From the NCBI GenBank assembly GCA_001940755.1, contig MEHH01000005.1, forward strand, positions 1 through 28,883: a stretch of 28,883 nucleotides of DNA, read 5' to 3'. The notes beneath the pieces were generated by a model, which worked only from the letters and a program-made list of their open reading frames with translations, made no database searches and was not told the origin of the DNA. Numbering within the stretch: the first letter of the stretch is position 1; the number at the start of each line of letters is the position of its first letter. Both the position numbers and the translations under genes were made by a program. Positions 21,267 to 26,872 of the stretch are shown here, in pieces. This stretch comes from Candidatus Heimdallarchaeota archaeon AB_125. GTDB lineage: Archaea; Asgardarchaeota; Heimdallarchaeia; Heimdallarchaeales; Heimdallarchaeaceae.

Positions 21267-22316
21267 ATGGAGGATTTATCCGAAATGAGTGGAATTGAAA
21301 TTGCATTAATGATAACTGTTCCTGGTATTCTTTTCATTGTTATCATGGCCTTATTCATCGATTGGCTTGATAGAAAAGTATATGCCAGAGGGCAGAATAG
21401 AAAGGGTCCACCATTTTTACAACCTCTGTATGATATAGTTAAATTAACTGCAAAAGAGTCTATAATACCAACAGGTGTTAGTAAATTCTGGATGACTGTT
21501 TTACCAATAGCTTTCTTTGCTACATCGCTAACAGGAGCTTTAATGATTCCTATGGCGATTTTCGACGATATTACCGGTGCCGCAACAGGTTTTGCATCAT
21601 TTGATTTTGATATATTCTTTGTACTATTTATCATTCTTTCTTTTGGTTTACTCATATATTTCATGGGTATTGTTACAAAGAATCCATTTGCACAAACTGG
21701 TTCAACAAGATCACTTCTACAAGCTTTAAGCTTTGAGATACCATTGGCATTCAGTTTTCTAGTACCAGTCCTAATTGTAGGAATTGGTGGAAGTCCGGAC
21801 ACACCTTCAACCTTCAGACTTAGTGAGGTTAGCGCAAATCTTTTTGCAAGCTTAGGAGCCAATCCATGGCTCATCATAGGTTTGGTAATTGCATTTGCTA
21901 TATCAATCTTAGTCATGATGGCTGAACTTGAAGAATTTCCATTTGACTCCCCAGTAGCTCACACAGAACTTGCTGATGGGTGGTTAGTTGAATACGGAGG
22001 ATGGCGATATGCACTCATAATTCTTGGTGAAAGAATTGGTGCATTCTTTATTGGTGGATTAATAGTGACACTCTTTCTAGGTGGCCCATCTGTGGGCTTA
22101 GAAGGCGTGATAGCGAATCCTGTTTTGATGGGTTTCTTGAATGTAATATTCTTTACACTGAAATTAATAGCTGTAATAGCAGTAATGTCTTTCTTAAGAA
22201 CATTAATTTCTCGTATTAGAATCGATCAAACAGTAAGGTTAGCTTGGAAGATAGTACTTCCAATTGCACTTGTTGCAATAATGTTAACTCTTGGATTATC
22301 AATGTTAGGAGTGTAA
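21267..22316 (+). CDS. NuoH-like (MbhM/HyfC-like) membrane subunit
   Basis: The translation has [28 protein letters not shown] (NuoH signature R.GP..LQ..D..KL) and multiple TM segments. An alternative start ATG at 21285 is preceded by GGAGGA with a 9-nt spacer and may be the true start. Confidence 0.88.
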
Positions 22317-22720
22317 TGAAAATGGAATGGTATATAGCTTTAATAATTGATCTTATTGCTAGTGTAGTACTCGCTGTTGTAGTTTGGCTTATTAGCAAAA
22401 GAGTACGTTACATACTTGATACTCAACCTCCAACACAAAGTAAAATGAAGAAAGATCTTTTCGCAAGTGGAGAAGGTTCAATTCTAGCAAAACCTAGGAA
22501 AATTTTCATTGACACTTATGTGTTCATTGCATTCTTTATCTTGTTTGATATTGCAGCATTCATATTAGCTACAGTATTCTTTGTAGGATTAGCACCAGCA
22601 GCAACTTTAGAAGCAGCTCTTGTCTATTCAGCACTAATACTTATTACAGTCTTAGTTGCAATAAAGAAGAAATATCCTAGAGATGCAGCTGACCCAGTCT
22701 TAGAAGGAGGAATCGAATAA
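22316..22720 (+). CDS. NuoA-like small membrane subunit
   Basis: The ATG at 22316 overlaps the nuoH-like stop by 1 nt (TAATG). The protein has three TM segments, a loop reading LFASGEG (compare NuoA YECG) and [12 protein letters not shown] (compare NuoA FLIFD.E..FL). The ORF-track start at 22244 lies inside the upstream gene. Confidence 0.7.
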
Positions 22721-25373: not shown

Positions 25374-26872
25374 TGAACCCATATCTATCCTTAATACTGA
25401 TAATACCAATTGCTGGTGCAGGGCTTTTAGCACTGTTTGAGCAATTGAAGAAATTCTTAGCAAAATGGAAAATCTGTACTGATTGTATAAACCACGCTTT
25501 AGCAAGTATAATTGCTTTAGGAGTCTTTGGACTTTCTATTGTTGCAGCTTTCGTACCTTCATTCTTAACATGGCTTGAATCATTTTATAATGGAGGACTA
25601 CTAAGATTTGGACAACTTGAAGCAGTGCTTATTGCAATATTCAGTTTCCTTGTCTTGATGGTAACAATATTCAGTGTTAACTACATGAAAGGCAAAAATG
25701 GAATTGGTTACTACTATGCTCTAATCTTTACACTTCTCACTGGTTTAAGTACTGTAACTATGGCAAACAACTTCATCACACTATTTGTTGGATGGGAACT
25801 GTTTGCTTTAAGTGCATATGTACTTGTATCTTTTGAGAGAGCAAAGAGAGGTGCAGTAGAAGCTTCAATGAAATACTTCATTATGTCTACTGCTGGTAGT
25901 ATGCTAGTTTTACTTGCTACAGCTTTAACTTACGGAATTTATGGAACTGTTGAATATACAGCTATTGCTGCATCTACAACTCCAATTGCCGCTATAATCA
26001 TGGCATTGTTTGTTGTTGGTTTCGCAGTAACAGCAGCTATGCTTTTACTAAATGCTTGGTTGCCAGATGCCCACAGCTCTGCCCCATCAACTATTTCAGC
26101 ATTACTTTCTGGAATCGTTGTTAAAGCAGGTGCAATAGGTATCTATAGAACCTTATACTTTGCATTCTCCCCAGCTGCGTTAAGTGCTGCAACTGGAGCA
26201 GTTGTCTCCTGGTTAGGTATCTTGACTATGATTGAAGGAAATTTCTTAGTATTTGCTCAATTCAAGCGTAAAGATATTGTTGATTTCAAGAGAATCTTAG
26301 CTTATTCAACAACAGTACATCTTGGTTACATCATACTAGGAATCGGATCCATGGCTCCTGATGCTTTAGGAGTTCAAGCTTCAGTATTCCACATACTAAC
26401 TCATTCTCTAGGAAAGGGTGGTCTGTTCTTGCTCAGTGGAGTTTTGATTACAGCACTTGGTTCAAGAGATATGAGAAAGATGATTGGTATTGGAAGAAGA
26501 TCACCATTTATTGGTATAGTCTTAACAGTTGGTTTACTTTCATTAGGAGGTATTCCTATAACTGCTGGATTTGCATCAAAACTAATGGTAATTCTTGCAA
26601 CATTCAATGGTGGAGCTAACGCTGTTAATCCTTTAATGTTTATCAACAGTATTCTGTTAGTAATTATGGCTATCATTAACTCCTTGCTAGCTTTAGGAGG
26701 ATATCTGTATATTCTAAAGAAAATGCTCTTTGATGAACCAGATGGTGAAGATACAGGCAAGATAAAAATACCAATATTCCAAAAAATAGCTTTAGCTATA
26801 ATTGTAGTTGTTCTAATAGTTCTTGGTTTATGGCCAGATCTTATTGTGAGCAAAATAGCACTTATAGTATAA
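25373..26872 (+). CDS. NuoN/NuoM-like antiporter-type subunit
   Basis: The translation has GWELFALSAYVLVSF, a MKYFIMSTAGS-type motif, LPDAHSSAPSTISALLSGIVVKAG and KRILAYSTTVHLGYI. The start overlaps the upstream stop by 1 nt (TAATG). Confidence 0.88.
   Translation: MNPYLSLILIIPIAGAGLLALFEQLKKFLAKWKICTDCINHALASIIALGVFGLSIVAAFVPSFLTWLESFYNGGLLRFGQLEAVLIAIFSFLVLMVTIFSVNYMKGKNGIGYYYALIFTLLTGLSTVTMANNFITLFVGWELFALSAYVLVSFERAKRGAVEASMKYFIMSTAGSMLVLLATALTYGIYGTVEYTAIAASTTPIAAIIMALFVVGFAVTAAMLLLNAWLPDAHSSAPSTISALLSGIVVKAGAIGIYRTLYFAFSPAALSAATGAVVSWLGILTMIEGNFLVFAQFKRKDIVDFKRILAYSTTVHLGYIILGIGSMAPDALGVQASVFHILTHSLGKGGLFLLSGVLITALGSRDMRKMIGIGRRSPFIGIVLTVGLLSLGGIPITAGFASKLMVILATFNGGANAVNPLMFINSILLVIMAIINSLLALGGYLYILKKMLFDEPDGEDTGKIKIPIFQKIALAIIVVVLIVLGLWPDLIVSKIALIV

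Follow-up and report, generated by a model that had tools for sequence, protein, structure and literature searches.

The membrane-arm operon

The window, i.e. the whole stretch of 28,883 nucleotides of Candidatus Heimdallarchaeota archaeon AB_125 that was analysed, contains at positions 21267-26872 six translationally coupled genes in the order NuoH-, NuoA-, NuoJ-, NuoK-, NuoL- and NuoN-like (designated H, A, J, K, L and N; Table 1). The H/A, A/J and L/N junctions read TAATG, the J/K junction reads ATGA, and K and L are separated by a 6-nt gap. This chain of open reading frames (ORFs) and overlaps had been proposed in an initial annotation made from the nucleotide sequence alone; the coordinates and every junction were re-read and agreed with it. 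The subunit assignments were borne out by matches in Pfam, NCBIfam and the PDB. In the HMM searches carried out on each arm protein, H, J, K, L and N matched Pfam families and A stayed below the cutoff.

Table 1. Positions of the genes and features discussed in the text.
Feature	Position	Strand	Evidence or remark
hypD (partial, off contig end) + hypC	3..1167	+	homology to flanking HypD/HypC of congeners
orf227, conserved ORF, 227 aa	1238..1921	+	between hypC and HyC; no Pfam match
HyC, NuoC-like peripheral subunit	2039..2566	+	PF00329 9e-27
HyD, [NiFe]-hydrogenase large subunit, NuoD homologue, 418 aa	2563..3819	+	MbhL 6e-71
HyI, 2x[4Fe-4S] ferredoxin-like, NuoI/HycF-like	3832..4302	+	Fer4 families
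HyB, hydrogenase small subunit, NuoB homologue	4259..4771	+	PF01058 3e-30
hypE + hypF	17681..21088	+	AIRS and AIRS_C domains; directly upstream of arm operon
H, NuoH-like subunit at peripheral/membrane arm junction, 349 aa	21267..22316	+	PF00146 3e-66
A, NuoA-like subunit, 134 aa, 3 TM	22316..22720	+	PF00507 5e-4, 20.6 bits
J, NuoJ-like subunit, 166 aa, 5 TM, one polypeptide	22720..23220	+	PF00499 49.7 bits
K, NuoK-like subunit, 104 aa, 3 TM	23217..23531	+	PF00420 2e-22
L, NuoL-like distal antiporter-like subunit, 611 aa	23538..25373	+	PF00361 + PF00662; TIGR01974
Codons for predicted lateral helix HL of L, about aa 538-582	25149..25283	+	AF2 secondary structure
N, proximal antiporter-like subunit, NuoN-side but divergent, 499 aa	25373..26872	+	PF00361 1e-53
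orf123, conserved small membrane protein, 123 aa	26991..27362	+	downstream of N; no Pfam match

The best PDB matches of H were NdhA and MbhM (both 3.6e-25), with NuoH next. A is the weakest family call, its score lying below the PF00507 cutoff of 23.3 bits, and had been named beforehand as a possible weak point. A profile built from 11 orthologues matched ND3/NuoA/NdhC chains in 23 of 24 PDB matches (best 4e-4), which upholds the call. The protein has an FD motif in TM2 and an SGEG loop, and its AF2 model, of low confidence (pTM 0.34) and used for helix topology only, consists of TM1, a loop, TM2 and TM3. An A-homologous ORF lies upstream of B in sister families, the canonical nuoA position. 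J exceeded the PF00499 cutoff of 33.2 bits and covered model positions 2-138 of 146; its N-terminal 80 residues scored best against MbsD (1e-5) and then Nqo10 (3e-3). K matched NdhE, NuoK and MbhG in the PDB. The annotated transmembrane Glu of K is present in TM2 (E35), and the second NuoK Glu, in TM3, is replaced by Val.

No ORF in the window matched the MrpE/F/G family, in agreement with the claimed absence of MrpEFG-like genes, and an Mrp-type Na+/H+ module was thus not found among them. A NuoEFG/FpoF-type electron-input gene was also absent from the window.

The arm operon apparently possesses both a promoter region of its own and a T-rich terminator. T-rich tracts follow the stop codon of N, and orf123 beyond them is, from its sequence context, probably a separate transcription unit. 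It occupies the same position in the genomes G001 and G004 (57-59% identity). It was not adopted as an extra subunit, having no Pfam match and being parted from N by the T-rich tracts.

The two antiporter-like subunits

L scored 439 bits against the NuoL model TIGR01974 (cutoff 407.5), matched E. coli NuoL at 1e-78 and was placed inside the NuoL clade with a support of 99/95. Its AF2 model (pTM 0.85) has TM15 at 510-531, helices at about 538-582 and a last TM at 587-610, and the top Foldseek match of this model was E. coli NuoL (TM-score 0.81). According to the model, L is a NuoL fold with TM15, a lateral helix (HL) and TM16, and the long C-terminal extension with an extra TM noted in the initial annotation was seen as helices followed by a TM anchor, the HL region being predicted with moderate confidence (pLDDT about 50-73). 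Superposition of full-length L on E. coli NuoL gave an rmsd of about 13 Å, which fits a displaced TM16 but proves nothing. Among 23 homologues the residues E140, D179, K229, H261, K353 and K410 of L are invariant; the charged channel residues E140, K229, H261, K353 and K410 are kept.

The HL was compared by helix boundaries and tail lengths only. The tail after the conserved D561 of L counts 51 residues. Its counterpart has 72 residues in E. coli NuoL and 106-110 in Heimdall three-pump arms, and every two-pump arm has a tail of 46-54 residues. The predicted HL of L is accordingly 21 residues shorter than that of E. coli NuoL and about 55 shorter than those of the Heimdall three-pump arms. The shortfall of 21 residues corresponds to an internal gap between conserved flanks (VFVKP ... 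TG.INW).

By pairwise comparison N was closest to MbhH (2e-45), followed by MbsH (2e-35) and mycobacterial NuoN (6e-35). Its assignment as an Mbh-type pump was nevertheless rejected, as the tree groups N with the NuoN clade across a branch with a support of 81/90 and outside the NuoM and NuoL clades. It does not fall within the NuoN crown clade, and AU tests rejected neither the grouping of N with NuoN (p 0.35) nor a single origin of the two-pump N proteins (p 0.45). The phylogeny thus suggests, with moderate support, that N sits on the NuoN side.

Most charged channel residues that were looked for in N are kept (E142, K251, K348 and K403), as is E35 in K. The Lys of TM7 did not conform to this expectation: it is Thr220 in N, and Thr in all of the two-pump orthologues aligned (17/17). 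Because N lacks the TM7 Lys and K lacks its second Glu, the coupling into the first pump may differ from that in complex I.

The [NiFe] module and its linkage to the arm

The genes HyC-HyD-HyI-HyB lie 16.5 kb upstream of the arm operon on the same strand. After MbhL, HyD matched HycE (1e-58) and then NuoD, and its RACGICSAVH and DPCFSCTNR motifs align column for column with the NiFe-ligand motifs of MbhL. HyD is the sole large subunit with NiFe ligands in the assembly and has a C-terminal extension of 34 aa. HyI matched HycF-like and NuoI-like NCBIfam models, all below cutoff. The start of HyB is uncertain (GTG 4259, ATG 4283 or ATG 4304), giving a protein of 155-170 aa with the motifs GCNGC, NCC and GCPP, in which GCNGC replaces the tandem Cys of complex I. 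Re-reading of the CxxC pairs of HyD and of GCNGC in HyB confirmed that the subunits encoded at 2039-4771 are of the hydrogenase type. The group-4 [NiFe]-hydrogenases are characterized by two ligand motifs of the large subunit (N-terminal RxCGxCxxxH and C-terminal DPCxxCxxR/H), a short NuoB-like small subunit for one [4Fe-4S] cluster whose first motif is CxxC, and associated NuoH-like and antiporter-like subunits, and all were found here. The maturation genes hypCDEF are all on the contig of HyD, and a HycI-family protease is encoded elsewhere in the assembly. The conserved orf227 has the same position in G001 (65% identity) and G004 (54%) and has no Pfam match; it was likewise not adopted as an extra subunit.

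In five congeners HypE-HypF-H-A-J-K-L-N-orf123 is convergent with HyB-HyI-HyD-HyC-orf227-HypC-HypD at a distance of about 0.5 kb, a form also shown by Ca. Heimdallarchaeum endolithica PR6, whose genome is closed. In five others the two halves share a contig, as they do in the window, and stand about 20-24 kb from each other. The order HypE-HypF-H-A-J-K-L-N is kept in G001, G004 and PR6, and the arm and the NiFe module are near-universal among 25 congeners. Sister families possess a single operon, (A)-B-C-D-H-I-(J)-K-L-N, beside hyp genes. On account of this conserved synteny and of the single operon in the sister families, gene order indicates that the arm and the NiFe module belong together, which supports the earlier proposal that the arm is coupled to a true Ni-Fe site. 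By the same comparison, a local rearrangement has split a locus that relatives keep in one piece.

The initial annotation had counted only two antiporter-like subunits. The closed PR6 genome likewise contains exactly two detectable antiporter-like (PF00361) genes and one NuoH gene. This demonstrates that the two-pump count is not an assembly artefact. By tblastn no further copies of H, A, J, K, L or N were detected in the genome of AB_125, H being its only NuoH homologue, and neither L nor N, the two pumps present, is a member of the NuoM clade.

A probable complex-I-like hydrogenase

From the sequence comparisons it seems quite likely that together the six genes specify the whole membrane arm of a group-4 [NiFe]-hydrogenase of the Heimdallarchaeaceae, an energy-converting, complex-I-like enzyme of ten subunits. 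Synteny and homology suggest that HyBCDI docks on H. By homology to Mbh and complex I, reduced ferredoxin would donate electrons to the two [4Fe-4S] clusters of HyI, from which they would pass via the HyB cluster to the Ni-Fe site of HyD, where protons would be reduced to H2; this is the presumed direction, and the reverse would be possible. The energy released at the D/B/H interface would reach the proximal pump N and the distal pump L by way of charged residues in H, A, J and K. The lateral helix of L, shortened by about the width of one subunit and ending in a TM anchor, would clamp the pumps together. On the deduced stoichiometry, fewer ions should be translocated per H2 than by complex I per NADH, and more than by one-pump hydrogenases.

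Comparison with related complexes

A two-pump complex-I-like architecture is already known for Asgard archaea. Valentin-Alvarado et al. (2024; Nat Commun, PMC11291895) described group-4 hydrogenases of Asgard archaea that are complex-I-like, carry an HL helix and have fewer pumps, and such hydrogenases, of groups 4j/4m/4p/4q, were described by Appler et al. (2024; bioRxiv 10.1101/2024.07.04.601786), who name the Heimdallarchaeaceae. The initial annotation had left novelty open, pending a known group-4 type of the same design, and these papers essentially supply one. As described in these papers, the Asgard enzymes resemble the present one in the NiFe large subunit accompanied by NuoB, C and I, the lack of NuoEFG in the locus, the NuoL-like subunit with HL, the two antiporter-like subunits in an arm shorter than that of complex I, and the predicted ferredoxin-to-H2 chemistry. 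A NiFe head, an HL-bearing NuoL-like subunit (as modelled) and at most two antiporter-like subunits, all in an Asgard genome, are indeed what was found here. The locus differs from those described in consisting of two hyp-flanked halves, with nuoA moved between H and J, and in its HL, 21 residues shorter than that of E. coli, in contrast to the 'full-length' HL given for Freyarchaeia/Atabeyarchaeia in PMC11291895. In the passages searched no mention was found of the TM7 Lys-to-Thr replacement in N or of an orphan Mbs-like module.

With respiratory complex I (E. coli 3RKO/7P61, T. thermophilus 4HEA), the 11-subunit forms NDH-1 and Fpo included, the arm shares H, A, J, K, L and N, the order K-L-N, the Glu/Lys/His channel residues of L and, in the model, a NuoL fold with TM15, HL and TM16. 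The arm also has the single 5-TM NuoJ, the 3-TM NuoA, the NuoK and, as modelled, the NuoL with a lateral helix that mark a complex-I arm. In contrast to complex I there is no NuoM, so that two pumps are present instead of three, the HL is shorter, B has CxxC instead of tandem CC, N has Thr at the position of the TM7 Lys and K lacks the second Glu. Complex I moreover has a NuoD without NiFe ligands that forms a quinone or methanophenazine site, whereas all four NiFe cysteines are present in HyD. The quinone-site residues of complex I occupy the positions of these cysteines.

MbhL of the P. furiosus Mbh (PDB 6CFW) is the closest solved relative of HyD, as MbhH is that of N by pairwise score, and the ferredoxin-to-H2 chemistry is presumably the same. 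The arm nevertheless departs from the Mbh type (group 4d) by its two antiporter-like subunits, its single 5-TM J and the lack of a MrpE/F/G match in the window. In Mbh there is a single antiporter-like subunit, the NuoJ equivalent is split (MbhD/E), MbhA-C are MrpE/F/G-like, and no second pump contributes a NuoL-type lateral helix.

The comparators of the initial annotation were incomplete, as two further complexes with a pair of antiporter-like subunits, MBS and Mrp, had been left out. In MBS these are MbsH and MbsH'. In MbsH, as in N, the TM7 Lys is missing (Glu in MbsH) and the (F/L)xLNAW motif that follows contains Asn, and MbsD gave the best score for the start of J. MBS differs in having no NiFe site, and it retains Mrp-type small subunits. 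The MbsL-like protein of the present genome belongs to an orphan module on contig C20, not to the partner of the arm indicated by synteny. The Mrp antiporter (PDB 6Z16, 7QRU) has two pumps (MrpA and MrpD), a lateral helix on its NuoL-like subunit and a NuoK-like MrpC; it differs in having no NuoH, NuoA or redox arm, and its MrpE/F/G-like proteins are missing here.

Hydrogenase-4 (Hyf) and the formate hydrogenlyase FHL-1 (Hyc, PDB 7Z0S) of E. coli share the group-4 NiFe site and antiporter-like subunits with the present enzyme. HyfD is sister to the NuoL clade (100/98), and HycE and HyD have a C-terminal extension in common, with a HycI-family protease present here. Three antiporter-like subunits (B, D and F) occur in Hyf and one in Hyc, and no homologue of NuoA or NuoJ is annotated in either operon. 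Hyf and FHL-1 are formate-linked.

Evolutionary position

Complex I is thought to stem from a soluble hydrogenase joined to a Mrp-like antiporter. Enzymes of this kind combine a working Ni-Fe site with NuoA, J, K, H and a clamp-helix NuoL, and no other living enzymes model that transition better. The archaeal lineage in which they occur is the one closest to eukaryotes, and syntrophy models of eukaryogenesis give H2 production a central role. The evolutionary case has already been made in print; the window adds a syntenically validated Heimdallarchaeaceae example, the rule relating clamp-helix length to pump number, the conserved Lys-to-Thr change at the entry of the first pump and an orphan second head.

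The arm had initially been said to look intermediate between Mbh-type hydrogenases and complex I. The mosaic is real, with an MbhL-like D, an MbsD-like start of J and complex-I-like L, A and K, but the polarity is left unsettled by the tree, which is unrooted, with deep nodes unresolved and AU tests non-significant either way. Instead, a three-pump (L-M-N) ancestor of the complex-I-like kind could have lost NuoM and had its HL shortened internally, the two-pump enzyme then being a derived hydrogenase and no stage between Mbh and complex I. The two-pump L clade lies within a polytomy that also includes E. coli NuoL and the Heimdall three-pump L proteins (99/95), the HL gap has conserved flanks, and arms with three and four pumps are found in the same class, all of which would fit such a reduction. 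It is less readily reconciled with a catalytic subunit that keeps the full NiFe site and is closest to MbhL, with the position of N outside the NuoN crown clade or with the likeness of J to MbsD, and the tree in its present state does not decide for it. We regard secondary reduction as a reasonable possibility, although a somewhat doubtful one.

A second peripheral module

The assignment of the arm to the NiFe module as a complex-I-like hydrogenase has to be viewed beside a second, Cys-less module, B2-C2-D2-I2, on contig C20. This module lacks both NiFe ligands and membrane-arm genes, and over its full length the D subunit was most similar to MbsL from the MBS complex of P. furiosus (2.5e-87). 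An armless second module counts against a simple one-head assignment of the arm. One arm might serve both heads interchangeably: no other copy of H, A, J, K, L or N was found in the genome, the closed PR6 genome has two B-C-D-I modules yet one NuoH and two PF00361 genes, and the orphan arrangement is kept in G001, PR6 and PM71. If this were true, the complex would be a modular respiratory enzyme that switches acceptor (protons versus sulfane sulfur or another) on one pump. However, the C20-type module was never syntenic with the arm in the genomes examined and occurs in at least 8 of 25 congeners, against the near-universal arm and NiFe module, and related Cys-less modules carry three- or four-pump arms of their own (G030; an extra cluster in PM71). 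Sharing of the arm by two heads therefore appears unlikely.

For the hydrogenase assignment it also matters whether the arm could function alone, as a redox-independent Mrp-like cation/proton antiporter with a coincidental hydrogenase neighbourhood. The distance from the redox genes in the window and the apparent promoter region and terminator of the operon would allow this, but the linkage to the NiFe module and hyp genes is kept across the genus and the genes are operon-fused in the sister families. NuoH, on which B and D dock, plays no part in Mrp antiporters. A stand-alone arm is accordingly very improbable. Still less credible is a third antiporter-like subunit encoded elsewhere or lost in assembly: the MAG is 86% complete and contains a weak PF00361 match at C193:3968-5689 (3.9e-6), but closed PR6 has the L and N genes alone, 21 of 24 congeners were matched, each to one L gene, and three pumps would require a longer HL than L has. 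The C193 protein, the sole extra PF00361 match, was discarded as a third pump, since it lies within its own divergent J-K-L-like operon beside two secreted proteins and is part of a separate degenerate module.

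Composition of the membrane arm

The AB_125 assembly is a 2.28-Mb, 86%-complete metagenome-assembled genome in which the window is one entire contig (C5), and its hydrogenase large subunit is 80% identical to those of Ca. Heimdallarchaeum aukensis PM71 and Ca. H. endolithica PR6, both available as closed genomes. The initial annotation described a chain of six genes for NuoH-, A-, J-, K-, L- and N-like subunits joined by short overlaps and a gap. The junctions were exactly as described: H/A, A/J and L/N overlap by TAATG and J/K by ATGA, and 6 nt separate K from L. Profile searches (Pfam, TIGR01974) agreed with the subunit names: H matched PF00146 (3e-66), J PF00499 (49.7 bits, cutoff 33.2; 5 TM), K PF00420 (2e-22; 3 TM), N PF00361 (1e-53), and L both PF00361 and PF00662 while also passing the NuoL model TIGR01974 (439 bits, cutoff 407.5). 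The weakest call was that of A, which scored 20.6 bits with PF00507, under the cutoff of 23.3. It is supported by a profile of 11 orthologues, for which 23 of 24 PDB matches were ND3/NuoA/NdhC chains (best 4e-4), by its topology of three TM helices, the first two joined by a long loop, and by sister families, in which the A-homologous ORF immediately precedes B, where nuoA canonically lies. J is one NuoJ-like polypeptide, the first 80 residues of which matched MbsD (1e-5) slightly better than Nqo10 (3e-3). As had been claimed, none of the ORFs of the window matched an MrpE/F/G family.

The best PDB match of L was E. coli NuoL (1e-78), which was also the top Foldseek match (TM-score 0.81) of its AF2 model (pTM 0.85). 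An IQ-TREE phylogeny of 40 antiporter-like proteins placed the L proteins of all two-pump arms in one clade (99/98), which lies within the NuoL clade (99/95); HyfD is sister to the NuoL clade. Pairwise, N was closest to MbhH (2e-45), MbsH (2e-35) and mycobacterial NuoN (6e-35). In the tree the N-like proteins shared one side of a branch with the NuoN clade (81/90), outside the NuoM (99/97) and NuoL clades, and a grouping of N with NuoN was not rejected by the AU test (p 0.35). N-like is thus a fitting name, and M is the subunit that the arm lacks.

That only two antiporter-like subunits are present was borne out at the genome level. Both strong PF00361 genes of AB_125 lie inside the window; a third, weak match (3.9e-6) belongs to a separate, very divergent operon on contig C193, with J-, K- and L-like products of 226, 93 and at least 573 aa, and no further copies of H, A, J, K, L or N were found in the genome by tblastn. 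Decisive for the count is the closed PR6 chromosome, which contains exactly two PF00361 genes and one NuoH. PM71 possesses an extra operon encoding antiporter-like proteins of 497, 676, 489 and 479 aa, which is absent from PR6 and was not found in the AB_125 genome. Hence, pump number varies from two to four inside one family.

Coordinates of the features discussed (window positions unless a contig is named)
Feature	Position	Strand	Remarks
orf227	1238-1921		227 aa, between hypC and HyC
NuoC-, D-, I-, B-like genes (HyC, HyD, HyI, HyB)	2039-4771		hydrogenase head
HyD C-terminus	3715-3819		34 residues past DPCFSCTNR / cleavage-site Arg
Interval between half-loci	4808-17600		12.8 kb, unrelated housekeeping genes
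H-A-J-K-L-N	21267-26872	+	six chained ORFs
N Thr220 codon	26030-26032		TM7 Lys position
orf123	26991-27362		123 aa, membrane protein, after N
HycI-family protease (endopeptidase) gene	C164:3790-4089		
Divergent operon	C193:1259-5686		two secreted N-glycosylation-rich proteins, then divergent J-, K-, L-like genes
B-C-D-I module	C20:4609-7115	-	also in G001 (L046) and PR6 (L081)
Extra PM71 operon (L079)	G041:C1:2760184-2771433		x-K-B-C-D(Cys-less)-H-I, then four antiporter-like genes

The hydrogenase head and its maturation

The peripheral subunits had been called hydrogenase-type. In accordance with this, the HyD motifs RACGICSAVH and DPCFSCTNR can be aligned with the MbhL motifs that bind Ni-Fe, MbhL being the solved protein most closely related to HyD (6e-71; HycE 1e-58, NuoD about 1e-48), and HyB carries GCNGC. 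No other large subunit in the assembly has NiFe ligands, and hypC, hypD, hypE and hypF are all within the window. MbhL stops at the second motif, beyond which HyD is extended; the HycI-family protease encoded on contig C164 fits this extension, which suggests that HyD is matured by proteolysis as HycE is. In some sister-family operons (L040, L041, L049) a single fused ORF of 561-595 aa encodes both C and D; it resembles E. coli NuoCD yet is of hydrogenase-type sequence.

Linkage of head and arm

Synteny indicates that the head and the membrane arm belong together. In five congeners (G001, G003, G004, G014, G019) the NiFe D gene is located about 3 kb from L on one contig, and the full layout, determined for two of the congeners, is a single locus in which HypE-HypF-H-A-J-K-L-N-orf123 is convergent with HyB-HyI-HyD-HyC-orf227-HypC-HypD. 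The closed PR6 genome has this same layout. In AB_125 and five others (G006, G008, G010, G013, G020) the halves are on the same strand, 20-24 kb apart; in the window the genes between them encode an APH-type kinase, an MFS transporter, a TrmB-like regulator, thioredoxin, GyrA, GyrB, a MiaB-like radical-SAM enzyme and YccF. As the half-loci abut convergently in five congeners, an inversion or insertion appears to have split the locus in the AB_125 sub-lineage. Sister families within the order have a single operon (A)-B-C-D-H-I-(J)-K-L-N that adjoins hyp genes. Within the genus the NiFe D gene was found in all 24 sampled genomes, and 21 of the 24 had an L match, in each case to a single gene; N-type homologues occur in 27/30 genomes of the family and are patchy across the class. 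The positions of orf227 and orf123, neither of which has a Pfam match, are kept in congeners, and each might be an accessory or assembly factor specific to the lineage.

Coupling-path residues and the clamp helix

Conservation of the charged TM residues, proposed as a check, held for L but only in part for N and K. L residues E140, D179, K229, H261, K353 and K410 are invariant across 23 homologues. N keeps E142 (TM5), K251 (TM8), K348 (TM11) and K403 (TM12), but in every one of the 17 aligned two-pump orthologues Thr takes the place of the canonical TM7 Lys, and the PxH motif that follows reads LLN. This Lys is kept in NuoL/M/N, MbhH, MrpD and MbsH', and in the M and N subunits of the three-pump arm of the Heimdall genome G030. 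MbsH deviates similarly, with a Glu at this position followed by PLN. In K the TM2 Glu is kept but the second Glu is Val.

The long C-terminal extension with an extra TM attributed to L is reproduced in the AF2 model, where TM15 (510-531) is followed by predicted helices at about 538-582 and a last TM at 587-610. The tail was measured from a conserved Asp (D561 in the window L, D542 in E. coli) to the C-terminus. It comprises 46-54 aa in all 19 two-pump arms, from two families (51 in the window), 72 aa in E. coli NuoL and 106-110 aa in four Heimdall L proteins of the 700-aa type, one of which (G030) is shown to lie in an H-J-K-L-x-M-N arm. These lengths suggest that the lateral clamp helix (HL) scales with pump number. 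Aligned with E. coli NuoL, the window L has an internal 21-residue gap between conserved flanks. With a helix rise of 1.5 Å per residue this gap equals roughly 30 Å, which would correspond to about one subunit width.

Relation to published enzymes

The initial annotation inferred a complex-I-like two-pump arm on a Ni-Fe site, possibly novel. The inference was correct; the finding is genuine, has good support and carries biological meaning, but the novelty did not stand: this kind of enzyme has already been described and the lineage named (PMC11291895; bioRxiv 10.1101/2024.07.04.601786). The former (Nat Commun 2024) modelled group-4 hydrogenases of Freyarchaeia and Atabeyarchaeia, relating their large subunits to those of Heimdallarchaeia, and the latter named groups 4j-4q, predicted to reduce protons with ferredoxin. 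The searchable text of neither mentions the Lys-to-Thr change of N. That of the preprint has no mention of HL, which PMC11291895 calls 'full-length', so that its shortening in the window L is not described in these texts. Both details are an incremental addition to the published text.

Proposed mechanism

The subunit set, ligands, linkage and channel residues are shown here; the scheme that follows is proposed by homology with Mbh and complex I. Reduced ferredoxin, the likely donor, would pass electrons via the HyI clusters and the HyB cluster to the Ni-Fe site of HyD, where H2 would be formed from H+ in a step that may be reversible. Coupling, both conformational and electrostatic, would extend via H, A, J and K into N and L, which a short HL presumably holds. 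Reaction direction and stoichiometry are, like the donor, inferred.

A second head module

Contig C20 carries a further head module. Its D subunit is without any NiFe cysteines, and its nearest relative is MbsL from the P. furiosus sulfane-sulfur reductase MBS (2.5e-87). No NuoH or pump genes were found near such modules in AB_125, G001 or PR6, and the closed PR6 genome has no second NuoH. It is possible, though improbable, that the C20 module shares the H-A-J-K-L-N arm. The module is present in at least 8 of 25 congeners. In other genomes, related modules that lack the Cys residues are accompanied by dedicated arms with three or four pumps.
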